Shown: in pieces, positions 2,903 to 22,840 of the stretch
Layout: each line of letters starts with the position of its first letter
Position numbering within the stretch: the stretch's first letter is position 1
Assembly (NCBI GenBank): GCA_039180345.1
Contig: JBCDDK010000096.1
Location: forward strand, 1 to 26,265
Reading direction: 5' to 3'
Length of the DNA: 26,265 bases
DNA from: Cyanobacteria bacterium P01_G01_bin.39
Lineage (GTDB): Bacteria > Cyanobacteriota > Cyanobacteriia > Cyanobacteriales > Xenococcaceae
Notes under the pieces: generated by a model
Database searches by the model: none
What the model saw: the letters and a program-made list of their open reading frames with translations, nothing else
What the model was told of the DNA's origin: nothing
Made by a program: the position numbers and the translations under genes

Positions 2903-4867
2903 ATGTCAGAAACAAATATAGAGTCGATTTTACAAGAGAAACGGGTATTTAATCCGACTGCTGAATTTGCCAAAAATGCGGCAATTAAAAGTATGGAGGA
3001 GTATCAAAAGCTCTATAGCCTTGCAGCTCAAGATCCTAGCGGTTTTTGGGCAAAATTAGCCGAGAAAGAACTACATTGGTTTGAGAGATGGGGCAAAACT
3101 TTAGATTGGCAACCGCCCTTTGCTAAATGGTTTGTCAACGGTAAAATTAATATTTCTTATAATTGTCTAGATCGACATCTAACTACCCATCGTCGAGATA
3201 AACCAGCCTTGATTTGGGAGGGAGAACCGGGAGATTCGAGAACTTTAACCTATGCCCAACTTCACCAAGAAGTTTGTCAAATGGCAAACGTGATTAAAAA
3301 GTTGGGGGTCAAAAAAGGCGATCGCGTGGGCATTTACATGCCGATGATTCCCGAAGCGGCGATCGCCATGTTAGCCTGTGCCAGAATCGGTGCAGCACAT
3401 AGCGTGGTCTTTGGTGGCTTTAGCGCCGAGGCTTTAAAAGCTCGTCTGGTGGATGCGGAAGCAAAATTAGTCATTACCGCCGATGGTGGTTGGCGCAAAG
3501 ATAAAATTGTCCCCCTCAAAGATGCCGTGGATCAGGCGATCGCCGAGGATGTCCCTAGCGTCAAAAATGTGCTGGTGGTGCAGCGTACGAAACAAGAAAT
3601 TGAGATGCAGAGCGATCGCGATTATTGGTGGCATGAACTAAAAGCCGATGCCTCAGATAATTGTCCAGCCGAATACATGGATAGTGAAGACTTATTATTT
3701 ATCCTTTATACTAGCGGCACTACAGGTAAGCCGAAAGGTGTGGTTCACACCACAGGAGGCTACAATCTTTATACTCACATGACCTTTAAGTGGACATTTG
3801 ATATCAAAGATGATGATGTCTACTGGTGTACGGCTGACGTAGGCTGGATTACAGGACATAGCTACATTGTTTATGGTCCACTATCCAACGGTGCAACTAC
3901 CGTGATGTACGAAGGCGCACCTCGACCTTCTAATCCTGGCTGCTTTTGGGATGTAGTGGAAAAATATGGCGTAACTATCTTTTACACCGCCCCCACAGCA
4001 ATTAGAGCATTTATCAAAATGGGAGATGAACATCCCAACAGTCGTGATCTCTCATCTCTACGTATTTTAGGGACAGTCGGGGAACCAATTAACCCCGAAG
4101 CCTGGATCTGGTATCACAAGGTTATTGGTGGTGAACGTTGTCCCATTGTTGATACTTGGTGGCAAACGGAAACTGGTGGCTTTATGCTCACTCCCCTTCC
4201 AGGAGCAACCCCGACCAAACCAGGATCGGCAACTTTGCCCTTTCCTGGAATTATTGCCGATGTAGTGGATCTTGACGGTAATCCTGTTGCTACCAACCAA
4301 GGAGGCTACTTAGTGATCAAACATCCTTGGCCGAGCATGATGCGTACCGTATATAAAAATGATGAGCGCTTTCGACATACCTATTGGGAGCATATTGAAC
4401 CAAAAGACGGACAATACTTCTATTTTGCAGGAGATGGCGCCCGTAAAGATGAAGATGGCTATTTTTGGGTCATGGGACGGGTTGATGATGTAATGAACAT
4501 CTCAGGACACCGTTTAGGCACCATGGAAGTAGAATCAGCATTGGTATCCCACCCAGCGGTAGCCGAAGCTGCGGTAGTATCTCGCCCTGATGAAATTAAA
4601 GGCGAAGACGTTTATGCTTTTGTGATTCTTAACGGTACTCATGATCCTAGTGAAGAGCTAAACCGAGAATTAAAACAGCACGTCGTTAAAGAGATTGGTG
4701 CGATCGCTCGTCCAGGATCAATCCGTTTTACCGATGCCTTACCCAAAACTCGCTCAGGCAAAATCATCCGTCGTTTTCTGCGTAATTTAGCAGCAGGAGA
4801 AGAACTAGTGGGTGACATCTCCACCATGGAAGACCTCAGCGTCTTAGACAAGTTGCGCCAAGGCTAA
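2903..4867 (+). CDS. acs: Acetyl-CoA synthetase (AMP-forming)
   Basis: 654 aa starting at ATG 2903. It carries the AMP-binding signature [19 protein letters not shown], and a typical Acs C-terminus ([12 protein letters not shown]). The length and N-terminus (VFNP...EYQKLY) are typical of Acs. Confidence 0.95.
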
Positions 4868-4977: not shown

Positions 4978-4981
4978 CAAG

Positions 4982-5055
4982 CAGGCCATTCAGGACTTGA
5001 ACCTGAAACCTACGCCTTAGAAGGGCGGTGCTCTATCCAATTGAGCTAATGACCC
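4982..5055 (-). tRNA. tRNA-Arg (anticodon UCU)
   Basis: The reverse complement folds by hand into a 74-nt cloverleaf. Acceptor stem is GGGUCAU/AUGGCCU (with G:U pairs), D stem GCUC/GAGC, anticodon stem CCGCC/GGCGU, anticodon loop CUUCUAA (U33, UCU, A37). The variable loop is 5 nt and the T arm is UCAGG-UUCAAGU-CCUGA. CCA is not encoded. Confidence 0.8.
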
Positions 5056-10281: not shown

Positions 10282-10704
10282 TTGACCTTACCGCCAAATC
10301 TATCAAGATTATTACCAAAATCAGAAGATGACCGTATTTTTAGCCATTTCACGAATGCCATTGGAGTTATAGGAATTACTGGAATTGAGGGAAATACTTT
10401 AGAATTGTACGAGCAAGTATATGTAAAACAGCTTACTTTTGGCTTAGGAAAAAATTCTTTTCTGGCTGGCAAGATAGGAGAAATATTTGTTACCGAACTA
10501 GGTATTGATGCCAGCGAAAGCCAATTGATGAGTATTGGCGTTTTCGGCGATAAGCAAAACTTTGTGATTCAATTTTCTAAGAAAGAAGCTTTTCTAAATA
10601 ATGACGTTAGAGTGTTAGGACAAAAACCTTCAAGAAATATCTATACTATTCCTGGAGGTTCTACACTAGAAGGTAAGTTTCTAATTACAAGGATTCGGTT
10701 ATGA
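10282..10704 (+). CDS. Hypothetical protein (no recognisable family)
   Basis: 140-codon open frame whose only possible start is TTG 10282, with no SD. Its stop overlaps the next gene's start (ATGA at 10701-10704), which supports it being real. The antisense ORF 10269..10472 is the alternative reading. Confidence 0.4.
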   Translation: MTLPPNLSRLLPKSEDDRIFSHFTNAIGVIGITGIEGNTLELYEQVYVKQLTFGLGKNSFLAGKIGEIFVTELGIDASESQLMSIGVFGDKQNFVIQFSKKEAFLNNDVRVLGQKPSRNIYTIPGGSTLEGKFLITRIRL

Positions 10705-11303
10705 GTCAGGTCAATCTAAATTCATTGATGGAAAATTTAGACTCTCCACAAATATCACGGCAAATTCCTGCAATGGATGAGGCAACAGCTATCGTTGAAA
10801 CTTTAGCCATTAAAGCAGTTGATTCCTTAAAGACAAGCTCAAATCCTTTTCTCGTTGCAGAACGCTTAGGTCGCTTCGGTTCAGTAATTGTTCCTCATTT
10901 AGAAATGCTGATCCAAGACTCGCACAATTGGGAGGTAAAAATATTAGCCTCTTTGGTATTGCTGCAATTAAATTCTCAAGTTGGAGTCCCTATCCTATTA
11001 AACGCTATTGAGGATAATGAAGAATATGCCATATTAGCGGCACAACATTTAGCACAGGCAAATGTTAAGGAGGCTATTCAACTAATATGGAATCGACTTA
11101 GGAAAAGTAAATTAGAACAAGTCGATTTGATTGAAAGCCTTCTAGCTTCCTTGAGTAGATTAAACCGCAAATTACCTCAAGACCTTTGGCAACGCTTTAC
11201 TGCTAATGAGATGCCTTGGGAGATTAAAACAATGTGCTTGAACAACTTTTCTGTTGTAGAAAATAGTCTGGAAGAAAGCCAAAACGTATATTCAACTCAT
11301 TAA
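10701..11303 (+). CDS. HEAT/PBS-lyase-like helical repeat protein
   Basis: ATG 10701 is preceded by AAGGA (10689-10693). It has repeated helix-turn-helix units of HEAT type: VIVPHLEMLIQDSHNWEVKILASLVLLQL, then VGVPILLNAIEDNEEYAILAAQHLAQ, then KEAIQLIWNRL. Confidence 0.55.
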   Translation: MSQVNLNSLMENLDSPQISRQIPAMDEATAIVETLAIKAVDSLKTSSNPFLVAERLGRFGSVIVPHLEMLIQDSHNWEVKILASLVLLQLNSQVGVPILLNAIEDNEEYAILAAQHLAQANVKEAIQLIWNRLRKSKLEQVDLIESLLASLSRLNRKLPQDLWQRFTANEMPWEIKTMCLNNFSVVENSLEESQNVYSTH

Positions 11304-11603
11304 TGTATGAAAACTACAACATCCGATTGTCAGAAGATTTAAAATCAAAGCATTATTGATAAATATAGGAAGAAATAAGAGAAAGTTAGTCAGATTCATC
11401 CAATTTTGATTGATTATCAGTCAAGAGACTATTTATGACGATAAATATCAAGCTTCTTATGAAAAAGCGATAAGAGAATATATCTGAATTTCTTAGCTAG
11501 GAGAAAATTAATCTTTACTTCATAGTAATAATTAAAGTAGCTTCGTTAATATTTGAGTAATTACCACCAACACAAGGTGAATTACTTTAAGAATTATTCA
11601 AAT

Positions 11604-12005
11604 ATGAGTTCAGAACTATTAACTGCTGCAAGTTTACTGAATATGGCTTTAGGGGGCATTATCGGGGGTGCGGCTAACGAAGGAAGAAAAAGACTGTGGC
11701 AAATGATTAGAGATCGCTTGCGGCAAAATCAGCCTGTTATTGAAGCCGAAATAGTTGAATTAGAGCAAAATCCTATTCCAGAGAATTTACAACCTTTAGA
11801 AGCTTTTCTCCAAGTGGAAATGCACAAAGACAAGGCATTTGCTGAAGCGATAAGTAAATTAGGTCAGGAAATAGCCAATGCAAATAGTGGCGACACCATC
11901 GAAATGAAAGAATTTGAAGCCAAAGATAATGCTGTTGTCATTGGCAAAGCAGAAGCCCAAACTCAGAATTTTGGAGGTACTCATCTTCATCCAAAAAAGA
12001 ACTAA
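11604..12005 (+). CDS. 133-codon ORF encoding what appears to be the detached N-terminal domain of the downstream NB-ARC/TPR protein
   Basis: I chose ATG 11604 (MSSELLTAASLLNMALGGIIGGAANEG...); the track ORF begins at TTG 11553. It is helical with a glycine-zipper first helix. It ends at TAA 12003-12005, two codons after the A_AAA_AAG heptamer. The -1 frame is open from 11930 into the NB-ARC gene. Confidence 0.6.
   Translation: MSSELLTAASLLNMALGGIIGGAANEGRKRLWQMIRDRLRQNQPVIEAEIVELEQNPIPENLQPLEAFLQVEMHKDKAFAEAISKLGQEIANANSGDTIEMKEFEAKDNAVVIGKAEAQTQNFGGTHLHPKKN
11993..11999 (+). other. A_AAA_AAG heptamer in X_XXY_YYZ phase with the upstream ORF: either a candidate -1 recoding site or the site of a 1-nt homopolymer deletion
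   Basis: Zero-frame codons are cc-A AAA AAG aac taa. A -1 slip, or one extra A, reads ...HLHPKK-ELTPDEYVEVLYKIEQ... straight into the NB-ARC frame. An SD-like GGAGGT at 11973-11978 lies 14 nt upstream. Confidence 0.45.
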
Positions 12006-12196
12006 CCCCAGATGAATATGTTGAAGTCCTATATAAAATTGAACAAGCAAATTCTCAAGTTACCACCTCAACAAATTTAAATACACTACCACCAAATCTC
12101 GAAAACTGGGTCGAGAGAACAGAAGAAATAGAGATCATTGAAGCATGGTTAAATAATCCACAGATTGCGACTGTAGGAATTACTCAAGCAAACACT

Positions 12197-14311
12197 TTGG
12201 GGATTCAAGGCTTAGGTGGGGTCGGAAAATCTACTTTAGCGGCGTATTTCTATCATTCTCTAGATTTTGAAGCCAAATTTTGGGCAGATGTTAGTGCCAA
12301 ACCCGACTTTACTATCTTTGCCGAAAAGATAATTATTGCTTTGGGCGGCAAGGTTGCTTTTCCCATTGATCTTACTGAGTTAATCAACAACCTACTTAAT
12401 TTACTCAGTCAGCGTCGTTGTTTATTGGTAGTGGATAATTTAGAAACCCTGCTGGATCAACAGAGAAATTGGCAAGACGAGAATTATCAGCAATTTTTTA
12501 GCCGCTGGCTGCAACAAGGCACAAAAAGTACTCTGTTGCTAACTACTCAAGACAAGCCAAGCTTATTCCAAAGTTTACAATCTTGGTATCCTTTGGGGGG
12601 AATGAAGATAACTGAAGGGGTTGAATTATTTCATCAACTTGGCATTATTGCCACCGAAGAAGAATTAACCAAGTTTGTTGAATATGTCCAGGGGCATCCT
12701 TTAACTATAAAGTTAGTAGCAGGGTATCTAATTAGCTACTGCGACAGTCAATTTAGTCAAGTTGAGGAATTAGAGTTAGCACAGTTTGAATTAGCTTATC
12801 AAGAAGCGACAGGATCGCACCGTAACCAAAAAGATGCTCGTCTATCTTGGATTATTCAACAACATCTAGACAAGTTAAGTTTAGAACAAACTCAATTTCT
12901 GATTGGTTTAAGCGTATATCGGGTACCTTTTAATCGCCAAGCAGCTAGTTACATGTGGCACGAGGAAGAAGCAAAGCCAATAATTATTAATAAAAAGCTG
13001 CAAGAATTATGCGATCGCTCGTTATTAATTAAGACAGAAGAGTTTAATTTTCAATTTGAATCTTTAGTCCAGAAATTTATTTTGCAGCAAGCTCATGATT
13101 TAAGTAATGCACATGTGCAAGCAATTGAATATTATCAAGCTAATTTAAAAGAAGCACAATCTTGGCAAGTTTTAGAGGATGTTAAGGAATATTTAGAAAT
13201 TATTCACCATCGCTGTGAATCAAGACAGTATGCTATAGCTAGTAATGTCTTGAATATCTGTTATGAATTCCTAAGTTTACGGGGATATTATGCAGTATTG
13301 GTAGAAGTATATGAACCAATAACTCAGGGATGGCAATCTTGCCTACAAAAAGAAGATCGTTATGACTATGCTTGGGCATTAAATCGTTTAGGTATTTTTT
13401 ATCGCTATTTAGGGAAAGTCCAGCAAAGTATTGTTTACAATGATCGCTCTCTAAAAATATTTCAAGATATTGGATCTGTTAGTGGATCAGCAGCAGCTTT
13501 AAATAATTTAGGCATTGCTTACTTTTCTTTAGGAGAATATCTACGAGCAATTGATTTCCACCGACGGGCGTTAGCGATTAGACAACAAATCGGCGACCGC
13601 CATGACGAAGCTGCTTCTTTAAATAATCTAGGCAATACTTACTGTTCTTTAGGAGAATATTCACGAGCAATTGATTTCCACCAACAGTCGTTAACCATTC
13701 AGCAACAAATTGGCGACCGCTATGGCGAAGGGATATCTTTAAATAATCTAGGTAATGCTTACTTATCCTTGGAAGAGTATCCACGAGCAATTGATTACCT
13801 TCAACAATCGTTAGCGATTACACAACAAATAGGCGACCGCAATAGCAAAGCGGTATCTTTAAATAATCTAGGCATTGCTTACCATTCTTTAAGAGAATAT
13901 TCACGAGCAATTGATTTCCATCAAAAGTCGTTAGCCATTCAGCAAAAAATCGGCAACCGCGAACAAGAAGCTAAATCTATAGGTAGTTTAGGCAATGTTT
14001 ACTATTCTTTAAGAGAATATTCACGAGCAATTGATTTCCATCAAAAGTCGTTAGCCATTCAACAACAAATCGGCGACCGCTATGGCGAAGCTAATTCTTT
14101 AGGTAATTTAGGCAATGCTTACTATTCTTTAGGAAAATATTCACGAGCAATTGATTTCTATCAACAGTTGTTGGCGATTGCACAAAAAATAGGCGACCGC
14201 CATGAAGAAGCTAATGCTTGGTTTAATTTATTTATTACTTATAACAAGCTACAGCAAGAGTCGGAAGCGAAAGCAGCTTATGAAAATTATATCAGGCAAG
14301 GAATTTTATAA
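12197..14311 (+). CDS. STAND NTPase of the NB-ARC (AP-ATPase) type with C-terminal TPR repeats (bacterial NLR-like)
   Basis: Motifs present are Walker A GLGGVGKST, Walker B RCLLVVDNLE, a sensor-like STLLLTTQD and a GxP motif GHPLTIKLVAG, followed by at least 8 TPRs. TTG 12197 is the first possible start codon, yet the frame is open and clearly coding back to about 11999 (LPPNLENWVERTEEIEIIEAWLNNPQIATVGI). The true product therefore probably begins at 11604 through a frame change. Confidence 0.85.
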   Translation: MGIQGLGGVGKSTLAAYFYHSLDFEAKFWADVSAKPDFTIFAEKIIIALGGKVAFPIDLTELINNLLNLLSQRRCLLVVDNLETLLDQQRNWQDENYQQFFSRWLQQGTKSTLLLTTQDKPSLFQSLQSWYPLGGMKITEGVELFHQLGIIATEEELTKFVEYVQGHPLTIKLVAGYLISYCDSQFSQVEELELAQFELAYQEATGSHRNQKDARLSWIIQQHLDKLSLEQTQFLIGLSVYRVPFNRQAASYMWHEEEAKPIIINKKLQELCDRSLLIKTEEFNFQFESLVQKFILQQAHDLSNAHVQAIEYYQANLKEAQSWQVLEDVKEYLEIIHHRCESRQYAIASNVLNICYEFLSLRGYYAVLVEVYEPITQGWQSCLQKEDRYDYAWALNRLGIFYRYLGKVQQSIVYNDRSLKIFQDIGSVSGSAAALNNLGIAYFSLGEYLRAIDFHRRALAIRQQIGDRHDEAASLNNLGNTYCSLGEYSRAIDFHQQSLTIQQQIGDRYGEGISLNNLGNAYLSLEEYPRAIDYLQQSLAITQQIGDRNSKAVSLNNLGIAYHSLREYSRAIDFHQKSLAIQQKIGNREQEAKSIGSLGNVYYSLREYSRAIDFHQKSLAIQQQIGDRYGEANSLGNLGNAYYSLGKYSRAIDFYQQLLAIAQKIGDRHEEANAWFNLFITYNKLQQESEAKAAYENYIRQGIL
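13500..14220 (+). repeat. Six tandem 120-bp (40-codon) near-identical TPR-encoding units
   Basis: The period is exactly 120 bp: the units line up in every second 60-nt sequence row. Long identical runs occur, for example ttctttaagagaatattcacgagcaattgatttccatcaaaagtcgttagccattca at about 13885-13941 and again at 14005-14061. Confidence 0.9.
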
Positions 14312-14417: not shown

Positions 14418-16235
14418 TCAATTAAAAACTTCTCCTGTTTCTTGTAAAGAATGTAAACGATGATAAATACCGCCGTGATTTAACAATTCCTCATGGCTAC
14501 CAACCTCGATAATCCGTCCTGCATCCAAGACTACAATTTGATCGGCTTCACGAATGGTACTGAGACGATGGGCAATAATTAGGGTGGTGCGGGTACCAAG
14601 GATGGACTTCATTGCCAGTTGAATCGAACGTTCGGATTCATAATCTAAGCTGGAGGTGGCTTCATCAAAAATCAAGATATCGGGGTCAACTACTAAGGCT
14701 CTAGCAATCCCTAGTCGCTGCTTTTGTCCCCCTGATAGTCTAACTCCTCGTTCTCCCACTAAGGTTAAATAGCCTTGGGGTAGTTCATGAATAAACTCAT
14801 CTACTCGCGCTATCTGACAGGCTTGCTTAACCTGTTCTCGATTTACTTTGGGATTGCCGTAGGTCAGGTTATCCCAAACAGTACCATTAAATATATCCAC
14901 ATCCTGATGGACGATCGCTAGACGGCGACGATAATGGGCTATATCTAACTCCTGAATATTGGTGCCATCGACTTTGATTGCTCCTTGATTAGGTTCAAAA
15001 TAGCGAAATAAGAGCTTAACCAAGGTGGATTTACCAGAACCCGAACGACCAACTAAAGCGACGGTTTGATAGGGTTTGATGATCAGGTTAATGTCCTGTA
15101 AGATTAAGCGATCGCTGTGGTAACCAAAACTAAGATGATTAAATTCTAAGTTACCTTCAAAGTGATAGGGATTATTCGCTACATCTTCTATAACTAAGCT
15201 AGCAGCATCGGCACCAGACTCAAGCTGCATAAAATCATGAAAACGGCGCATTGAGGCATAACGGCGGGCAAAGATCTCGGCTAGTTGGCTAATGGGTTCT
15301 AATTCTGCATAAGCCATACTCGAAACTGTCAGGGTGGTGATAAAGTGTCCCAGGGTGATATTACCCCTGACGGTAGAAATCAGGGTAAAGAGCAAAATCA
15401 GAAAGACACAGGTTTGAATTACCGTACGTGACCAGGTAATTAGATTGACATAGCCGCGATGAATACGATAGGTAACGTATGTAAATTCTCGTTCAAACCG
15501 CTGCCGCTGCCGTTGATATTCTTGGGCTTCGGTGGCAAAAGATTTGACGGTTTTAATGTTGGTAATGATTTCTGAGGTACGACTTTCGGTATTTTCCTGA
15601 TGCTTTTCTAGTAACTCCTCCTTGGCAATCAGAATTTTGAGATGTTTCAAGCTGTAGGAAAGAATCAACACAAAAGAAAGCAAAAAGGCGATCGCAATTC
15701 CCGCATCGATAAACAAAATCATCACAAAAATGCCTAGTATTCTGGCAAACTTAGGAATCAACTGTCCTGCAATTTCAGGATATGTCCAGGTGTGATTTTC
15801 AATTCCTCGCGCAATTCGACCCGCAATTCGACCTGGGTTATTTTCGTCGTAATAACCCAAGGGTAGAGTCAAAATCTTAGCCACCACCTGACTAAAATGA
15901 TCTCTTCTGGCTTTGAGGGCAATTGCCCAATGGTGCCACACCCCAATCCAAGGCTGAATTGGCGATCGCACTACCGTTACCAGAAAAATTATGCCTAGCA
16001 ACACTCCTAAAGATAACCATTTACCCTCAGGAAAATTGCCTATATTTTGAACTGTGGTAATTAAACTGACTAGAAGTGAATCGAGAGGCTGATTTGATAA
16101 AACATTTAAAATCTGTCCAATAATGTAGGGGACAACCAAATCAATAATTTCAAACAGACTTGATGCGGAAATACTTGCAATAGCGATCGCTTTGTAGTTA
16201 CGAAAGTAACCAACGACATCTTTGAAAGAAGACAT
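14418..16235 (-). CDS. ABC exporter, fused permease and ATPase half-transporter (MsbA/ABCB-like)
   Basis: 605 aa starting at ATG 16235. The N-terminal domain is a 6-TM type. The ATPase domain has Walker A GRSGSGKST, signature LSGGQKQRLGIARAL, Walker B ILIFDEATSSLD and H-loop IAHRL. Confidence 0.9.
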   Translation of the reverse strand: MSSFKDVVGYFRNYKAIAIASISASSLFEIIDLVVPYIIGQILNVLSNQPLDSLLVSLITTVQNIGNFPEGKWLSLGVLLGIIFLVTVVRSPIQPWIGVWHHWAIALKARRDHFSQVVAKILTLPLGYYDENNPGRIAGRIARGIENHTWTYPEIAGQLIPKFARILGIFVMILFIDAGIAIAFLLSFVLILSYSLKHLKILIAKEELLEKHQENTESRTSEIITNIKTVKSFATEAQEYQRQRQRFEREFTYVTYRIHRGYVNLITWSRTVIQTCVFLILLFTLISTVRGNITLGHFITTLTVSSMAYAELEPISQLAEIFARRYASMRRFHDFMQLESGADAASLVIEDVANNPYHFEGNLEFNHLSFGYHSDRLILQDINLIIKPYQTVALVGRSGSGKSTLVKLLFRYFEPNQGAIKVDGTNIQELDIAHYRRRLAIVHQDVDIFNGTVWDNLTYGNPKVNREQVKQACQIARVDEFIHELPQGYLTLVGERGVRLSGGQKQRLGIARALVVDPDILIFDEATSSLDYESERSIQLAMKSILGTRTTLIIAHRLSTIREADQIVVLDAGRIIEVGSHEELLNHGGIYHRLHSLQETGEVFN

Positions 16236-16242
16236 GTTAAAG

Positions 16243-16277
16243 GGATGAAGGATAAGGAACGAGGAATGAGGACATAG
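16243..16277. repeat. Imperfect heptamer repeat (GATGAAG GATAAGG AACGAGG AATGAGG ACATAGA)
   Basis: 7-nt periodicity with a conserved GGA/AGG core, immediately upstream of the ABC exporter start. The reverse complement resembles the TTGTTCC family at 6992. Confidence 0.45.
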
Positions 16278-16610
16278 AAATCTTCATTTCATAAATTTTT
16301 GTCAGTCAATCAGATCACCAACTCTTTTCTATACTTGTATTTTTTAAAAATTTCATGCAAATATTATTTTGTAAATGATATTTATAAAGTAATAACAAAG
16401 TTTTTGATGTGCCATACAATAAACACATAAGTGATATTACGTTTGTAATCGACTTATTTTCGATCACATATTTACTATAAAATCTATATTTTTTATCCAA
16501 ATGTAAAAAAAATCAATCATTTTTTATTCCAAATATATCTTTAATCTTTAAACTAATGTAAAATACTATTCATTCTATCGCTAAAAGCTTGGGCGCTTTA
16601 GGCTGAAATA

Positions 16611-16926
16611 TTTCTTTAATTGCAGACATTAAATTAACAACTGATAAAGATGGTAATGTCTCTATTTCTAACTCAGGAATTGAATTAATCCTACCGTCTC
16701 AACTTCTAGGTACGGCTCTATTCTATATAATAATACTGCTCCCGAAACACTATTAAATGAATTAATTAGCAATCCCTACAGTTTAAATTCATAACAACTG
16801 TTAACCAGATATTCTGCTAGTAAACGTATTTTTCAACGTCAAGCTGATGGTACGCTTAATTCTCGCTTCGACTATACCTACGACAATTTAGGCAGACGTA
16901 CCGAAGTAGCTACGGTTAAATTATAG
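16611..16926 (+). pseudogene. Degraded, internally deleted copy of the 5' part of the downstream RHS gene
   Basis: 16611-16851 aligns by eye with 18473-18709, and 16843-16912 aligns with 20066-20135. The two blocks join at GC(T/C)GATGGT. The copy carries an in-frame TAA (16792-16794, CAA in the intact gene) and a small frame-disrupting insertion near 16725-16735 (I did not fix its exact length). Confidence 0.7.
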
Positions 16927-17307
16927 ACTGCGATCGCATTTATCTGAATAAGAACTACAGATAATCCTTGTCCGTTAACCAAAGATAATAAACAATAGCT
17001 TTAGCGATCGCTATATCGTATTATGGAATAATCAAAATACACTTTAGATTAGAAAGCATTTAGGTAAAAAATTTAGGCAAAACTTACTTACCTACAAAAT
17101 ACTATCTCAATAACTGTGATTATACTATCGAATTGCTCGGTAGATTTTCTTACTCGATAAAATCTTTTTTGGCGATAACTTCATCAACACCTTATTATCT
17201 GAGTAATACATATTATTTTTTAGAGAAGCTTACTTATCAGATCTAGAATATATACTGAGATAATGCTAGTTTGTTTATATTAATAAATCAAATTTGCCGA
17301 GCAAATT

Positions 17308-17742
17308 ATGGCACAGCCAGAAAATAATTGCGATGCGATTGAAGAAAGTACAAAAACTCATGTTTTATCTGAAAAAGAGAGGAAAGTTACAGTTGTTGCT
17401 ATAGTTATATTTTCTCTTCTGATTTTGATTTTACTAGCTTTAATTGCTGAAGCATTAATTAATCAACATCCTGTCTTTGAATTTTTACAATATAATATTT
17501 TCAAAGAGAAGTTGATAATTACAGGTTCAATTTCCTATAACTACGATACAACTGGACAGTATTTACTTAGCATCGAAGACGTTAATGGCAAAACTAGCTT
17601 TAGTTACGATAATCCTTTTGATCCTACTTTGGTCAGTGGCGTTACCAATAGCGATGGGTCAAAACTCAGCCATGACTATGACCATGCAGAACGTTTACAG
17701 CAGATAATTTATGGAGAGAAAGTTAACATTTGTGATGTATAA
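17308..17742 (+). CDS. Chimeric ORF: a novel N-terminus with one TM segment fused to a duplicated YD-repeat fragment of the RHS gene (possible orphan or pseudogene)
   Basis: ATG 17308. Residues YNYDTTGQYLLSIEDVNGKTSFSYDNPFDPTLVSGVTNSDGSKLSHDYDHAERLQQIIYGE parallel RHS residues YHYDETGQYLLSIEDANGTTGFSYNNPFDPTLVSSVNYGDGSKLSYDYDHAGRLQQVIYGE. At the DNA level 17536-17720 matches 18970-19155. Confidence 0.45.
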   Translation: MAQPENNCDAIEESTKTHVLSEKERKVTVVAIVIFSLLILILLALIAEALINQHPVFEFLQYNIFKEKLIITGSISYNYDTTGQYLLSIEDVNGKTSFSYDNPFDPTLVSGVTNSDGSKLSHDYDHAERLQQIIYGEKVNICDV

Positions 17743-17782
17743 ATATTAATAAGTTAGATTTATTACCATACAATTTAATTAT

Positions 17783-18037
17783 TCATATTCTGTTGTTTTT
17801 CTTTGTTATCATTATATACGAAGTAATTCCAACTAATACTACTATCAATATCAGAATCAAGCTAGTGAATAATGCACCATATGTATAGAATAAATTACAT
17901 TCTACTAAAAAACCTTCGCTGTAGAAAAAGCCATTTTTGTTACATTGTATGTATTGCATACAGCCTAATTCCAGAAAGATAAAACTCGATAAACATAGTC
18001 CATAAATTGCTTTTTGTATCTTGTTTAATTTAAACAT
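17783..18037 (-). CDS. Hypothetical small two-TM membrane protein
   Basis: 84 aa starting at ATG 18037, with two hydrophobic segments flanking a loop that contains 4 Cys. The context is very AT-rich with no homology clue, so it could be spurious. Confidence 0.3.
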   Translation of the reverse strand: MFKLNKIQKAIYGLCLSSFIFLELGCMQYIQCNKNGFFYSEGFLVECNLFYTYGALFTSLILILIVVLVGITSYIMITKKNNRI

Positions 18038-18421
18038 TGTTTTTAATTAAAAGTTATTTTCTAAATTAGAAAAATGTTAACTACTAAGTTTTTTTTAAGC
18101 TTAATTTAAGCTTTACATATCTACCATATTTCTAGAAGTCGATACGCTTCTATAGCTTGTTCTTTTTAAAGTAAATCTACTTCATAACTTATAGTTTAAC
18201 AATATCTTCATGAAAATCCTATTCTCTGAAAAATATTTTAAAGCAAAGAAAAAGTTTAGTCTTGGTATATAGCTCGAATACTCAAGTACTGTTAGTTTTG
18301 ATATGTATTCATCTTAAGTCTTATAAAAATAAATAAAGAACCTATATGTAAGAGCAGTAAATCTCTGTTTTAGATATTCATATCTTTTCTAATTTCAAGT
18401 TTTATATATTTTAATTTAACA

Positions 18422-21400
18422 ATGAACTATACTAATTATCCAGCAAACAGCTTGGATGTTTTCGGTTGGAATTTTTCCTTGATTGGTGATATTAAATTAA
18501 CAACTGATAATGACGGTAATGTCTATGTTCTTAACTCAGGAATTGAATCATTATTACCTCAGCAACTTTTAGGTACAGCACTATACAATACTGCTGATTT
18601 ACAATCACCATTAGCAGAATTACAAAGTAATCCCTACAGCGTAAGTTCACAACAGCTTATAAGACCTTATTCCTCTAATAAGCGAATATTTAAACAACAA
18701 GCTGATGGTAGTTATCAGGGTGATAGTGGTACTTTAATTTGGAATGTTGACCATTACGAATTAGTAGAAGCTGACGGTACAACAATTGTTTTTCGTCCTG
18801 ATGGCAAATTAAACTATGTCAAAGACAGTAATGGTTATCGTTTGACGGCTGGTTACACTGGTGATTTACTAACTCAGCTTTCAGCCAGTAACGGAGATAG
18901 TTTTACTTTTGACTATAATTCTGATGGGCGAATTGAAACTGTTACAGACCAAAGAGGACAAACTAATTCTTACCACTATGATGAAACAGGTCAATATTTG
19001 CTAAGCATTGAAGATGCTAACGGTACAACTGGCTTTAGTTACAATAATCCTTTTGATCCAACATTAGTAAGTAGTGTTAACTATGGCGACGGGTCAAAAC
19101 TCAGCTATGACTATGACCATGCAGGACGTTTACAGCAGGTGATTTATGGCGAAGGGAGAGAAGCTTTAGCCTATACCTATAGCTATGACGACAATGGCGG
19201 GGTAACTATAATTAATCCTGATGGTGGGACTAATCAACAACTACGCAACGAACAAGGACAGGTTAGTCAAACAATTGATGCCAATGGACGCATTACTAAC
19301 TATAGTTATGATGCTGCGGGTAATCTGACGGGGATTGATGGCGAGTTGGAATATAGTGCTGGTTTTACCTATGACGATGAAGGTAATATCACCAGTCAGA
19401 CCAATGCTTTGAATCAAACTACTCATTTTACCTATCAAGCACAGACAAATAAGTTAGCTAGTTTTAAAGATGCTCATGGTAATGATGTTCTCTATAGTTA
19501 TAACGGTCGCGGAGATCTCAGCAGAATTACTTATGAAGATGGTACTCAGGATAAGTATTTTTATGATGATCAGGGACTGTTAATTAGATCAGTTAATCGT
19601 CGCGGTCAGAAAATTCGTTACGAATACAATGATAGATATCAAGTTACTAAAGAAACTCACAGCGATGGAAGAATTATTGAATATGAATATGGAGCAAATA
19701 CTGGGCTGCTTACTTCTATCAGTGATAATAATAGAGAAGATCATACCCAATTCAATTATAATCAAGCCGAAAATAAATTTTCTATTATTCATCCTAGCGG
19801 GTTTGTACATAGTTATATTTTCGATAATTTAGGCAGAAAAACTCAAGTTACTATTCAAGATGGTAGAAATATCTTCACCACCAACTACAGCTACGATAGC
19901 TTGGGTAGACTAGACCAATTGACTGACGGCAATGGTAATCTAATCGTTGACTATGACTACCATCCTCTAACTGGACGGTTAGCCAAAGAAACAAACGGTA
20001 ATGGTACATCTACTACTTACAGTTACGACCTTGCAGGACAGTTAATCAGTTTAGTTAACGCTCAAGCCGATGGTACGATTAATTCTCGCTTCGACCATAC
20101 CTACGACAATCTTGGCAGACGTACCGAAGTTAGTACTTTAGATGGAACATGGAGTTATAGCTATGATCTATCAGGACAGTTAACAGGTGCAGTATTCGCT
20201 TCAACTAATCCTGAAATTGATAGTCAAGACTTGACCTATGTTTATGACGCTGCGGGTAATCGGACTCAAACTATTGTTAATGGAGTTACAGAAAACTACA
20301 GCACTAATAATCTCAATCAATATCAATCCGCAGGGACGACTATTTATAACTATGACCTGGATGGTAATTTAACCTCTAAAACTGAAGGTAATAAGACTTG
20401 GGCGTATAGTTATGATGTCAACAATCGTCTGGTTGAAGTTATTGATTCGGATAATAACCTAACCCAATATGAATACGATGCTTTTGGCAACCGCACTGCT
20501 ACTATTTATAATGGTCAGCGGACTGAATACTTGATTGATCCTTTTGGTTACGGGGATGTAATTGCTGAATATGATGGCGATGGTAATCTAATTGCGAACT
20601 ACAATCATGGTATTGGGTTAGTCAGTCGTACTGATGCTAACAACATTCAGGCTTTTTATGACTTTGACGGTACTGGTTCGACAGCCGCTTTAACAGGACA
20701 GGCGGGTGCTGAACTTAATAGCTATGCTTACCGTCCTTTTGGGGAAGACTTCTATGAAGTAGAAACCGTTGATAACTCTTTTGAATACATCGGACAGTGG
20801 GGCGTGACTGAGGAAGTTAATGGTTTAGACTTCATGAGGGCAAGATATTATGACAGTCACAGTGGCAGGTTTGTAGCAAGTGATCCCATTGGTTTGCAGG
20901 GGCAAGATACAAATTTTTATCGTTATGTAAATAATGATCCTGTTAGTTATATCGATCCCGAAGGTACTTTAGCTTTCTTAGCTGCGCCTGTTCTCATTTC
21001 CTTTGGTAGTGCCGCGGGAGGAATCGGGACAGGTCTCTTGTTAACTTGTCTTGGAGGTCAAGGAGGTAGTGCTGCTACGAATGCTCTATTTTTAACTGCT
21101 CTTATCGCAGCGGGAAGTGGCGTTCCAGGAGGCGCACAATTTGGTGCTGGTCTAAAATTTGGAGAATACATTTGCAATGCTAGTGATTCTTTGGCAGAAC
21201 CACCACCCTACGCCGAAGAGGCAGAAGATAGATATGACGATTCACAACCGCCAGTGCCACGACCCGCTTCACCTTTAGTTCTCGACCTAGATGGCGATGG
21301 CATCGAACTTACTGCAGTCAATACCACCAACGTGTTCTTCGATGTGGATAACGATGGTTTCCGCGAAGCAACTGGTTGGGTACAGGCTGATGATGGCTTG

Positions 21401-22840
21401 TTGGTGCTAGACCGTAATAATGACGGTTATATCAACGACAATTCCGAATTATTTGGTAACTTTACTACTAGCGGGTTTGTCGAGTTACGGGTAATTGACG
21501 ATAACGGCGACAGATTTATTGATGCTAACGATAGTAGATTTGCTGACCTACAAGTGTGGCGGGATTTGGATCAAGATGGTCGTTCCGATGCTAATGAACT
21601 TTATTCTTTAGCCGAATTAAATATTACTGGTCTTAACGCCCGTGCTAATCAAGTTAATGTTGTCAATGCTGGCAACATTATTGAAGAAACAACTTTCTAT
21701 CAGCTAGCGGACGGCACCACCAGAGAACTAGCAGATCCTTGGTTCCAGATTAATCAGCTTCATTCTTACTACGACCACAACTCTACTTATAACGAACCTG
21801 TAGTTTTGAATGAAGCAATATTCAAGCTTCCTAACCTCAGAGGCTATGGTCGTTTACCAGACTTACGAATTGCTATGGCAAAAGATGCCCAGTTACAGGG
21901 ATTAGTTCAGTCTTTTAGCGATCAAGTAGCTAGCGGTAATATTGCAGATGGTCTAAACTTAGCTACGTCGATTCTATATCATTGGGCAGGAGTAGAAGAT
22001 ATCGATCCTGACAGTCGCGGGATTAATGTTGATGGTCAAAAACTAAGATTTTTAGAGAAATTTATGGGTCGTAACTGGCGTAATGCCAGTGATGATAACC
22101 TATCAAGTCCATCTTATCGTCAGAAAAGAGATGGTGAAGATTTATTGAATCCACTGTTATCACAATTAGAAACTAGACTGCTAGTTCAGGCAGTTGACTC
22201 TCCTGTTAATTACAACACAGTAACTGAAAGCTATGTTTTCAATGGTTCAATTACTGAAGCTGCTAGTCAATTTAATCAACTTATTGCTCAATCTAGGATT
22301 ATCTACAGTCCAGAAACAGAACTCAAGGCACTGGCATTGGCTCAATATATTCGTCAAGAAGGTGAAGATACCAACGGGATATTTGGTGATGCTGGTAATG
22401 ACTACTTGAGTGATTATACTTCTGAAGCAGCAAAATTATATGGCTTTATGGGTGATGATAATTTAGCTACTGGTATGGGCAATGACTACTTATTTGCGGG
22501 TTTAGGTAATGATTATTTAACATCAGGTTCAGGAGAAGATACCCTCTACGCTCAAGCAGGAGACGACACTCTCATAGGTGGAACAGGTAACGATATTTAC
22601 TATGGTGGTGCTGGCAATGATTTAATTGAAGATATTTTAAGTAATAATTTCTTCGGTGCTGCTAACAATCCTGACAACGATACAGTAGATGGTGGTTCTG
22701 GCAATGATACCCTCATTGGTGGCAGAGGCAATGATCTCTACATCTTTAATCAGGGCTATGGTAACGATGTAATTTTAGATTATAGTGAACATTCCTATGG
22801 ACCCTTTGTTCCTAATGCTATTACAAGTGTCAGATATTGA
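18422..22840 (+). CDS. RHS/YD-repeat protein with a non-enzymatic-looking C-terminal region containing calcium-binding and RTX repeats
   Basis: It contains dozens of YD repeats (YxYDxxGxL...). The canonical RHS core end is RYYDSHSGRFVASDPIGLQG...NFYRYVNNDPVSYIDPEGT, with DPEG at aa 845-848 (nt 20954-20965). The remaining 624 aa comprise a Gly-rich hydrophobic stretch, a Pro-rich linker, five DxDxDG-type loops and GGxGxD nonapeptide repeats. Confidence 0.9.
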   Translation: MNYTNYPANSLDVFGWNFSLIGDIKLTTDNDGNVYVLNSGIESLLPQQLLGTALYNTADLQSPLAELQSNPYSVSSQQLIRPYSSNKRIFKQQADGSYQGDSGTLIWNVDHYELVEADGTTIVFRPDGKLNYVKDSNGYRLTAGYTGDLLTQLSASNGDSFTFDYNSDGRIETVTDQRGQTNSYHYDETGQYLLSIEDANGTTGFSYNNPFDPTLVSSVNYGDGSKLSYDYDHAGRLQQVIYGEGREALAYTYSYDDNGGVTIINPDGGTNQQLRNEQGQVSQTIDANGRITNYSYDAAGNLTGIDGELEYSAGFTYDDEGNITSQTNALNQTTHFTYQAQTNKLASFKDAHGNDVLYSYNGRGDLSRITYEDGTQDKYFYDDQGLLIRSVNRRGQKIRYEYNDRYQVTKETHSDGRIIEYEYGANTGLLTSISDNNREDHTQFNYNQAENKFSIIHPSGFVHSYIFDNLGRKTQVTIQDGRNIFTTNYSYDSLGRLDQLTDGNGNLIVDYDYHPLTGRLAKETNGNGTSTTYSYDLAGQLISLVNAQADGTINSRFDHTYDNLGRRTEVSTLDGTWSYSYDLSGQLTGAVFASTNPEIDSQDLTYVYDAAGNRTQTIVNGVTENYSTNNLNQYQSAGTTIYNYDLDGNLTSKTEGNKTWAYSYDVNNRLVEVIDSDNNLTQYEYDAFGNRTATIYNGQRTEYLIDPFGYGDVIAEYDGDGNLIANYNHGIGLVSRTDANNIQAFYDFDGTGSTAALTGQAGAELNSYAYRPFGEDFYEVETVDNSFEYIGQWGVTEEVNGLDFMRARYYDSHSGRFVASDPIGLQGQDTNFYRYVNNDPVSYIDPEGTLAFLAAPVLISFGSAAGGIGTGLLLTCLGGQGGSAATNALFLTALIAAGSGVPGGAQFGAGLKFGEYICNASDSLAEPPPYAEEAEDRYDDSQPPVPRPASPLVLDLDGDGIELTAVNTTNVFFDVDNDGFREATGWVQADDGLLVLDRNNDGYINDNSELFGNFTTSGFVELRVIDDNGDRFIDANDSRFADLQVWRDLDQDGRSDANELYSLAELNITGLNARANQVNVVNAGNIIEETTFYQLADGTTRELADPWFQINQLHSYYDHNSTYNEPVVLNEAIFKLPNLRGYGRLPDLRIAMAKDAQLQGLVQSFSDQVASGNIADGLNLATSILYHWAGVEDIDPDSRGINVDGQKLRFLEKFMGRNWRNASDDNLSSPSYRQKRDGEDLLNPLLSQLETRLLVQAVDSPVNYNTVTESYVFNGSITEAASQFNQLIAQSRIIYSPETELKALALAQYIRQEGEDTNGIFGDAGNDYLSDYTSEAAKLYGFMGDDNLATGMGNDYLFAGLGNDYLTSGSGEDTLYAQAGDDTLIGGTGNDIYYGGAGNDLIEDILSNNFFGAANNPDNDTVDGGSGNDTLIGGRGNDLYIFNQGYGNDVILDYSEHSYGPFVPNAITSVRY

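Follow-up and report, generated by a model that had tools for sequence, protein, structure and literature searches.

The window, a stretch of 26,265 nucleotides (nt) at positions 1 to 26,265 of contig JBCDDK010000096.1 from Cyanobacteria bacterium P01_G01_bin.39, originates from a metagenome-assembled genome (MAG). It contains an NLR-type gene whose reading frame opens without a start codon. The gene lies directly downstream of a short open reading frame (ORF) for a Bell-type protein on the same strand, and the two are joined in the −1 frame at a slippery heptamer. The features of the locus are as follows, with protein lengths in amino acids (aa).

11604–12005, + strand: frame-0 ORF of 133 aa plus stop, encoding a Bell-type helical domain with a tail; the predicted abundant short product (ORF reading and homologs)
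11604–11888, + strand: Bell-like domain, residues 1–95, with a hydrophobic N-terminal helix and four helices (AlphaFold2 and hhalign)
11892–11978, + strand: BASS10-like tail, residues 97–125, DTIEMKEFEAKDNAVVIGKAEAQTQNFGG, predicted to be disordered in the monomer
11927–11929, + strand: TAA stop of the −1 frame, the 5′ limit for a productive shift (ORF reading)
11973–11978, + strand: GGAGGT resembling a Shine-Dalgarno (SD) sequence, 14 nt 5′ of the heptamer; a possible upstream stimulator that also encodes a conserved Gly-Gly
11993–11999, + strand: slippery heptamer A_AAA_AAG in X_XXY_YYZ phase with the frame-0 ORF (codons CCA AAA AAG)
12003–12005, + strand: frame-0 stop TAA, separated from the heptamer by a single sense codon
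11999–14311, + strand: −1-frame ORF of 770 codons plus stop, encoding linker, NB-ARC and TPR; fully translated only as a fusion of 902 aa
11999–12196, + strand: start-less linker and pre-P-loop segment of 66 codons, ELTPDEYVEVLYKIEQANSQVTTSTNLNTLPPNLENWVERTEEIEIIEAWLNNPQIATVGITQANT, with the conserved TSTNL-x-T-x-PPNL-x-NWVER-x-EEI helix of the NTPase module
12191–12736, + strand: NB-ARC NTPase domain (Pfam PF00931, E 6.7e-9, fusion residues 197–378)
12197–12199, + strand: TTG used as start in the public annotation (P0001, 704 aa), 4 codons before the first Walker A glycine
13340–14302, + strand: TPR repeat sensor region (Pfam TPR_12, TPR_10 and TPR_1, E 1e-45 to 1e-57, fusion residues 580–900)

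The 3′ end of the short ORF reads ...CAT CTT CAT CCA AAA AAG AAC TAA. The −1 frame is uninterrupted between 11930 and 14311, and its first ATG, GTG or TTG is the TTG at 12197. A −1 slip on the heptamer is predicted to give a protein of 902 aa with the junction ...HLHPKK-ELTPDEY..., and the predicted junction peptide of this trans-frame product is HLHPKKELTPDEYVEVLYK. Walker A (GLGGVGKS) is encoded at 12209–12232 and Walker B reads LLVVDNLE. The best TPR profile on the fusion was TPR_12 with an E value of 1.5e-57. With an NB-ARC domain carrying both Walker motifs and repeats behind it, the −1 ORF fits the NB-ARC-TPR class of STAND NTPases. PADLOC models gave no defence-system match in the window beyond TPR, and no terminator was found between the Bell ORF and the NLR ORF. 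An earlier note made from this DNA had described the in-phase A_AAA_AAG at the end of the upstream ORF, the lack of ATG, GTG and TTG between the TAA at 11927–11929 and TTG 12197, the SD-like GGAGGT 14 nt upstream and a slip product of about 900 aa with N-domain, NB-ARC and TPR. All four descriptions held at the positions given above.

By profile comparison, the small ORF encodes a Bell-family domain with a BASS10-like tail. Pfam and NCBIfam contained no model for the N-domain. An AlphaFold2 model from a 55-sequence alignment had a mean predicted local distance difference test (pLDDT) score of 70.9, with helices at residues 8–19, 26–42, 44–55, 59–75 and 77–93 and pLDDT below 50 across residues 96–133. 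In hhalign, the family of the window matched canonical BASS10-type Bell proteins over the whole length including the tail, with 99.8% probability and an E value of 1.4e-29. A search of 1.84 billion representatives with the hidden Markov model of the family recovered 93 clusters, nearly all of 115–160 aa. Distant members open with MEPIT, MEPVT or MTDPVT and close with Q/N/G-rich motifs such as ...NATAYDQSTVKQVGKIEGDNVSF or ...KAYQQNQNQGKIYNADTITIHE. Their tails match the BASS10 family and an unclassified Crocosphaera watsonii motif listed for Bell proteins (Table S2 of Dyrka et al. 2020). The tail of the window, DTIEMKEFEAKDNAVVIGKAEAQTQNFGG, was similar in local alignments to published BASS10 motifs and to the N-terminus of the NLR P0081 (NRTEMEAIAKDNSKLTQIGSIRAD), with shuffle p ≤ 0.01.

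In published systems, the Bell protein ends in a motif that recurs at the N-terminus of the NLR encoded next to it (Dyrka et al. 2020, bioRxiv 10.1101/2020.01.06.895854). For Bab/Agp, amyloid templating activates a membrane-targeting domain and leads to abortive infection (bioRxiv 10.1101/2024.11.07.622273). The canonical relative P0081 does carry the N-terminal motif copy. A second copy was not present at the N-terminus of the NLR in the window, which has no start of its own and begins with the linker ELTPDEYVEVLYKIEQANSQVTTSTNL... without a repeat of the tail.

Frame junction across related loci

DNA was sampled from two homologs, 20 genome loci, 10 metagenome loci found in a close-family scan and a set of divergent loci, and the junctions compared came from 29 distinct loci. 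Among the 20 genome loci were two isolates, Hyella patelloides LEGE 07179 and Crocosphaera chwakensis CCY0110, as well as MAGs of Xenococcaceae, Pleurocapsa, Symploca and Crocosphaera. In the following, L-numbers denote loci and P-numbers the proteins compared. In every locus with both parts, tblastn placed the Bell ORF in frame f and the NTPase ORF in frame f−1, and further loci were alike. The two-frame layout was thereby found in 28 loci other than the window, from independent assemblies and with two isolate genomes among them. It persisted over Bell identities down to 34%.

The comparison also showed that the slippery site is conserved. An in-phase X_XXY_YYZ heptamer was located at the frame junction in 27 of the 29 loci, and in 26 it was of the V_VVA_AAG type. 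The junction sequences were distributed as follows.

A_AAA_AAG: 14 loci
G_GGA_AAG: 10 loci
C_CCA_AAG: 2 loci
G_GGA_AAC: 1 locus
G_GTA_AAG directly before TAA (A_AAG tetramer): 1 locus (L013)
GGGGGAG, degenerate: 1 locus (L036)

Chance occurrence of an in-phase V_VVA_AAG was 3.35e-4 per codon in the long ORFs of the loci fetched up to that point. At this background rate, about 0.3% of ORFs are expected to carry one in their last 10 codons. The heptamer is more frequent than expected by chance, since 26 of 29 loci possess it. In E. coli, the single tRNA-Lys(UUU) makes A_AAG shifty. Among the −1 motifs measured there, the three that shift most efficiently are C_CCA_AAG, G_GGA_AAG and A_AAA_AAG, at about 0.3% if no stimulator is present and at up to 54% when a pseudoknot is (PMC4066793; PMC5009743).

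The position of the frame-0 stop was the most constant feature flanking the heptamer. It followed after 0–1 codon in 27 of 29 loci and after 6–7 codons in two. Thirteen of the 29 distinct loci have a −1-frame stop 3 nt before the heptamer, which leaves a frame overlap of only 16 nt. Close homologs of the small ORF numbered 74, nearly all of 127–140 aa. The translated heptamer is visible at their C-termini, where [K/G/P]K plus 0–2 residues closes 60 of the 72 homologs of normal length. Among normal-length representatives of the whole family, a heptamer-encoded dipeptide formed the end in 15 of 78.

Closely related loci differed in heptamer type. L002 has GGGAAAG and L030 AAAAAAG, with 87% nt identity of the upstream ORFs. 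L034 (GGGAAAG) and L035 (CCCAAAG) share 85%, and the type is also switched between L020 and L021 at 83%. The switches are coordinated three-base changes that affect the third position of the preceding codon together with the two bases after it (CCA AAA, TTG GGA, CTC CCA). They are evidently compensatory changes that keep slipperiness and not protein sequence.

Two explanations that place the frame change outside translation can be judged from these data. The earlier note had named, beside programmed −1 frameshifting, a recent inactivating 1-nt deletion and a homopolymer assembly error. Such a defect of the MAG is the least probable of all explanations considered. The window does come from a MAG, and the related MAG loci L002, L003 and L006 have extra stops or frame breaks. 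Both variants are excluded by the recurrence of the layout in the 28 other loci, with independent assemblies, two isolates and non-homopolymer heptamers. The G_GGA_AAG and C_CCA_AAG loci, assembled independently, have no long homopolymer in which an assembly error could have arisen. Moreover, the 60 close Bell ORFs end at the same place, and both ORFs of the window are intact. Slippage of RNA polymerase on the A-run, which would restore the frame in some transcripts by an added or lost base, is very improbable as well. Thermus dnaX uses transcriptional slippage (PMC5009743), and the window offers a run of A6. The heptamer was rejected as a transcriptional slippage site, for which a run of at least 8 A or T is typical. 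Twelve homologous loci with GGGAAAG or CCCAAAG (G3A3 or C3A3) have the same layout with runs of only 3 nt, far too short for this mechanism, and the phase-specific X_XXY_YYZ pattern is a ribosomal signature. The reading of the earlier note as programmed −1 frameshifting gained support, in that homologous loci keep two frames and a heptamer and show neither a simple A7 nor an ordinary start.

The −1 frame of the NTPase is conserved upstream of any canonical start. Protein conservation in this frame begins at the heptamer with [E/G]L[S/T]P[D/E]E. The segment corresponding to 11999–12196 is kept as protein in 17 loci, the outcome on which the earlier note had made its fusion model depend. Differences at codon positions 3, 1 and 2 numbered 3712, 2795 and 1800, a pattern indicating purifying selection on the pre-P-loop segment in the −1 frame. 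Alignment of the fusion to the AAA_16 profile starts at residue 169, and to the FxSxx_TPR profile at residue 163. The start-less 66 codons therefore belong to the NTPase module. TTG 12197 is almost certainly not the true N-terminus, because a start at this codon removes the conserved pre-P-loop helix.

The first canonical start of the −1 frame is located 27–112 codons past the heptamer in most loci, and in five there is none before the P-loop. The conserved pre-P-loop helix is upstream of the first canonical start in most loci, and nSTAND1 and NACHT loci have no canonical start for 50–112 codons. A protein search with the fused sequence retrieved many homologs with 60–78% identity. Their annotated starts are scattered before or inside the P-loop (MGIQGLGG..., MGGTGKS..., MGITQANT..., MVKRKEE...). 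On the sequence level, these findings argue strongly against independent initiation of the NLR.

Two ordinary genes, with an incidental heptamer and an NLR whose translation begins at ATT, ATA or CTG as a non-canonical start or depends on termination-reinitiation, are accordingly improbable. The idea has some basis, as RefSeq annotates related NLRs from ATT or ATC, the linker of the window contains ATT and ATA codons, and coupled translation of neighbouring Bell and NLR genes is common (Dyrka et al. 2020). It leaves unexplained why V_VVA_AAG is present in 26 of 29 loci at a background of 3e-4 per codon and is exchanged by coordinated three-base switches. The constant −1 frame of the NLR and the onset of −1-frame protein conservation right at the heptamer are not explained either.

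Divergent partners and in-frame TGA variants

The junction is not restricted to NB-ARC partners. Four divergent Bell-like ORFs ending in ...KK were followed by different STAND NTPases in the −1 frame.

L023: A_AAA_AAG TTG TAA, heptamer 1950–1956, 25-nt overlap; nSTAND1 with pentapeptide repeats
L040: A_AAA_AAG CCA TAG, heptamer 562–568, 55-nt overlap; more than 1001 codons, nSTAND1-like with pentapeptide repeats
L025: A_AAA_AAG TAA, heptamer 3914–3920, 22-nt overlap; NACHT
L041: A_AAA_AAG CCT TAA, 73-nt overlap; NB-ARC

In the nSTAND1 type, the linker read after the shift includes a stretch resembling a beta strand (TILQADGNIVIFQ / TILEGNGNIIIFE) that could be a second motif.

Seven loci from five genera showed another arrangement. 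Here, the Bell-tail ORF ends with TGA, and an NLR ORF (NB-ARC/TPR) without a start runs on in the same frame from the next codon.

L043: 1015–1501
L044: 946–1501
L045: 1012–1501
L046: 1916–2378 (NC_019761.1 22601–23063)
L048: 3453–3930
L049: 3393–3870
L050: 3351–3948

Argonema galeatum, Aerosakkonema funiforme and Phormidium sp. LEGE 05292 are isolates, with NLRs annotated from MGRKEE.... In these isolate loci, 23–31 conserved linker codons follow the TGA without a start. Four of the seven loci are from finished genomes, namely plasmid pMIC7113.04 of Allocoleopsis franciscana PCC 7113 and pREB4, pREB5 and pREB8 of Acaryochloris marina MBIC11017. The three paralogous Acaryochloris loci have the common context TGA CTA GAG TCG. 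RefSeq places the start of the NLRs at TGA loci on ATT or ATC codons. The base after TGA was C in six of seven loci and A in one; it was U in none, and +4U is reported in one source to reduce readthrough (PMC5289835). We infer that the TGA loci are stop-codon readthrough variants of the Bell-tail-NLR design. This apparent second route to the same fusion suggests that selection favours a Bell-tail-NLR fusion at low level, by whichever mechanism it is made.

Proposed decoding and comparison with known systems

The locus is likely one translational unit that is decoded in two ways, into a free Bell-tail effector and a −1-frameshifted Bell-tail-NB-ARC-TPR sensor that signal through their tails. 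We infer the efficiency of frameshifting, the products and the signalling route as follows. Most ribosomes would read the 133-codon frame-0 ORF and stop at TAA 12003, releasing the free Bell-tail protein. A minority would slip by −1 on A_AAA_AAG, where the P- and A-site tRNAs would re-pair in tandem and tRNA-Lys would move from AAG to AAA. Slipped ribosomes would continue for 770 codons to the 902-aa Bell-tail-linker-NB-ARC-TPR sensor. The sensor would be rare and the free effector abundant, given the E. coli value of about 0.3% without a stimulator; with stimulators the share of the sensor would be higher. By analogy to Bell/BASS-NLR pairs and Bab/Agp, ligand-driven oligomerisation of the long form may cluster its tails. 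The clustered tails could then template the identical tails of the free short form, whereby the membrane-targeting Bell domain would be released. In analogy to the same systems, the released domain may damage the membrane and cause cell death or abortive infection. Receptor and effector motifs could not drift apart, because one motif-coding sequence serves both.

The main functional rival accepts frameshifting and differs in its purpose. Frameshifting would only throttle a toxic all-in-one Bell-NLR, and the short product would be an inert by-product, an inhibitor or a decoy. This appears rather unlikely, and the evidence is divided. All-in-one Bell-NB-ARC relatives work without a separate effector gene (P0061, P0065; Avast2 and bNACHT N-termini, bioRxiv 10.1101/2024.11.07.622273), and a bare heptamer (about 0.3% in E. 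coli, PMC4066793) and UGA readthrough are both of low efficiency. The recoding loci, however, keep a 30-aa Q/N/G-rich tail homologous to BASS10, which the in-frame all-in-one relatives do not have. That the stop stays 0–1 codon from the heptamer in 27 of 29 loci points to a defined short product.

Several observations weigh against decoding into a Bell-tail effector and a frameshifted sensor. Regarding stimulators, GGAGG was present 12–15 nt upstream in 8 of the 14 A_AAA_AAG loci, window included, and was not found in most others, so it is not universal. RNAalifold predicted 0 pairs of conserved downstream RNA structure for 15 loci. Within the window, the 111 nt after the heptamer gave a fold with z = −0.31 and no convincing hairpin, as already noted by eye in the earlier note. 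A hairpin GCCCAG...CUGGGC was rejected as a general stimulator, being confined to a subset and absent from the window and most loci. Regarding the heptamer, L036 (3896–3902) has GGGGGAG, and L013 (3381–3387), the second Hyella patelloides locus, has only A_AAG and the stop. Regarding the integrity of the gene, L002 and L006 contain extra stops and L003 an extra frame break, and P0002 (L028, 1023–2384) is an in-frame Bell-NB-ARC copy, the only one in the close family. Regarding the Bell assignment, Foldseek of the Bell model against PDB returned nothing below E = 0.8. The similarity of the window tail to BASS10 is moderate, and in the shuffle test the tails of L001 and L002 fell short of significance.

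Single-sequence folds of 70 nt past the heptamer from 21 loci had z values of −3.5 to +2.2 and no common structure. An Rfam scan of 11500–12500 (E ≤ 10) yielded chance matches only and no known frameshift element. The efficiency of frameshifting may be low. The GCCCAG...CUGGGC (or CGGGCU) hairpin is located 6 nt past the heptamer in L002 (2864–2905) and L009 (2414–2455) and partly in L006 and L007. This subset consists of G_GGA_AAG loci, and 6 nt is the usual spacing of a frameshift stimulator.

P0002 was also considered as proof of a normal fused gene and rejected. Its DNA keeps the heptamer G_GGA_AAG, GAA takes the place of the TAA, and a change some 30 nt further on brings the frame back. 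A TAG ends the protein at residue 453, the DNA beyond it is repeat-like and unrelated, and a YoeB/Phd toxin-antitoxin pair is located directly upstream of the ORF. It is probably a decayed copy. In L002, the pre-P-loop helix has an in-frame TAG at 2998–3000 where ...EAWLNN... otherwise has its conserved Trp. The locus is on a 1.9-megabase contig whose name suggests a long-read assembly. P0006 is annotated from a TTG equivalent to the TAG site of L002, and its own locus L030 has TGG (Trp) there. The TAG marks either a pseudogene or a further recoding event. The stops of L006 are in a locus with 3.6x coverage. In L003 (275–645), the Bell ORF is split over two frames (tblastn residues 1–64 in frame 2, 53–125 in frame 1), due to either an extra indel or an assembly error. 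The extra lesions fit turnover of the NLR family or errors in MAGs.

The decoding into effector and frameshifted sensor combines two known kinds of system, a heptamer-type −1 programmed frameshift and a Bell/NLR cell-death system. The programmed −1 frameshifting is strongly supported by the sequence comparisons. With E. coli dnaX (tau/gamma), the locus would share two products with a common N-terminus in a set ratio, and it has the identical A_AAA_AAG in the same phase. The SD-like element is 10 nt upstream in dnaX and 14 nt in the window. In dnaX, the shifted ribosome stops almost at once, giving a short trans-frame product, and a strong 3′ hairpin drives about 50% shifting. In the window, by contrast, the shift would lead to a long product with 770 more codons, the frame-0 stop follows one codon on, and there is no conserved 3′ structure. 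OrfA-OrfAB of IS3/IS911 and the phage tail-assembly chaperones G/GT are alike in having a short frame-0 protein and a rarer fusion that carries it whole at the N-terminus. The IS3 family uses the same A_AAA_AAG, G_GGA_AAG and C_CCA_AAG motifs (PMC4066793, PMC5009743). Both groups of genes belong to mobile elements or viruses and usually have a pseudoknot or hairpin, whereas the family of the window comprises chromosomal immune-type cyanobacterial genes with a STAND NTPase as fusion partner.

Two-gene Bell-BASS/BASS-NLR pairs of cyanobacteria have the same effector family, a BASS10-like tail and a collinear NB-ARC/TPR, NACHT or other STAND gene downstream. The NLR of the window differs from them in having neither a second motif copy nor a start, and it would gain the motif and the whole Bell domain by recoding. 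All-in-one Bell-NLRs (P0061, P0065; Avast2 and bNACHT N-termini) have the architecture of the predicted frameshift product with Bell, NOD and repeats. In contrast, they are encoded by a single in-frame ORF and have no Q/N/G-rich tail and no free Bell protein; P0061 and P0065 carry a Bell-like N-terminus without a tail. The in-frame UGA variants resemble the window in their Bell-tail ORF, the start-less NLR and the conserved linker from the next codon. They differ in that both parts are in the same frame with TGA between them, which implies readthrough instead of frameshifting.

Frameshifting is not mentioned in Dyrka et al. 2020 or bioRxiv 10.1101/2024.11.07.622273. The matched-pair table there has no Hyella, Xenococcus, Pleurocapsa, Symploca, Acaryochloris, CCY0110 or PCC 7113, and the Crocosphaera entries shown are C. 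watsonii pairs. None of the papers searched in full text reported recoding in bacterial NLR or Bell systems, nor the in-frame UGA form. Only few cellular genes of bacteria have a conserved −1 programmed frameshift. A 2016 review covers dnaX, copA and csoS2 among others, and most further cases belong to mobile elements and phages (PMC5009743). The locus would add a whole frameshift family from several cyanobacterial orders with at least three STAND NTPase classes, and would be the first case found of an innate-immunity-type NLR that depends on recoding. This would link the recoding field with bacterial NLR and amyloid cell-death signalling. The breadth of the family and the parallel readthrough form were unexpected. 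More tentatively, and as a possibility that we favour less than the decoding of the locus itself, these loci could represent an unrecognised class of recoding-dependent cyanobacterial NLR immune genes, with a −1 shift at V_VVA_AAG or UGA readthrough depending on the lineage and one motif for effector and receptor.

If this applies, recoding efficiency would hard-wire a high effector-to-sensor ratio. One slippery site would set the stoichiometry and at the same time keep the templating motifs of both proteins identical. There are consequences for annotation. Arbitrary internal TTG, GTG or ATT codons serve as annotated starts for the NLR of the window (704 aa from TTG) and for dozens of homologs, and the Bell ORFs are listed as hypothetical proteins. 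Many 'N-terminally truncated' cyanobacterial NLRs and 'orphan' Bell proteins would be halves of such genes, and surveys of Bell/NLR motif pairs would miss these loci.

Neighbouring genes and minor observations

The genes around the locus in the window are unrelated to it and encode a Wzz/AAA protein, an acetyl-CoA synthetase, a nucleoside transporter, an ABC transporter and an RHS/RTX protein. The Bell-NLR unit appears self-contained, because neighbours vary between loci. Two small ORFs at 10282–10704 and 10701–11303, overlapping by 4 nt (ATGA), are located directly 5′ of the Bell ORF on the same strand. The second had only a weak DUF5838 match, and neither was kept beside the other loci examined.

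The RHS/RTX protein (18422–22840) is 1472 aa long, with RHS repeats and, at its C-terminus, RTX calcium-binding repeats. Before it lies a 144-aa ORF (17308–17742) with a weak partial RHS-repeat match, and together the two are a possible polymorphic-toxin locus. The stretch is AT-rich, with a GC content of 0.29–0.31 at 16001–19000. The sole tRNA gene in the window is tRNA-Arg(TCT) at 4981–5055 on the − strand.

Among the loci compared, L031 and L038 have Bell-like ORFs ending in ...IGGAII without an NLR in the −1 frame. L042 covers only 24 residues of the NLR, and the contig of L027, a comparison locus of the canonical type, ends in an insertion sequence element.

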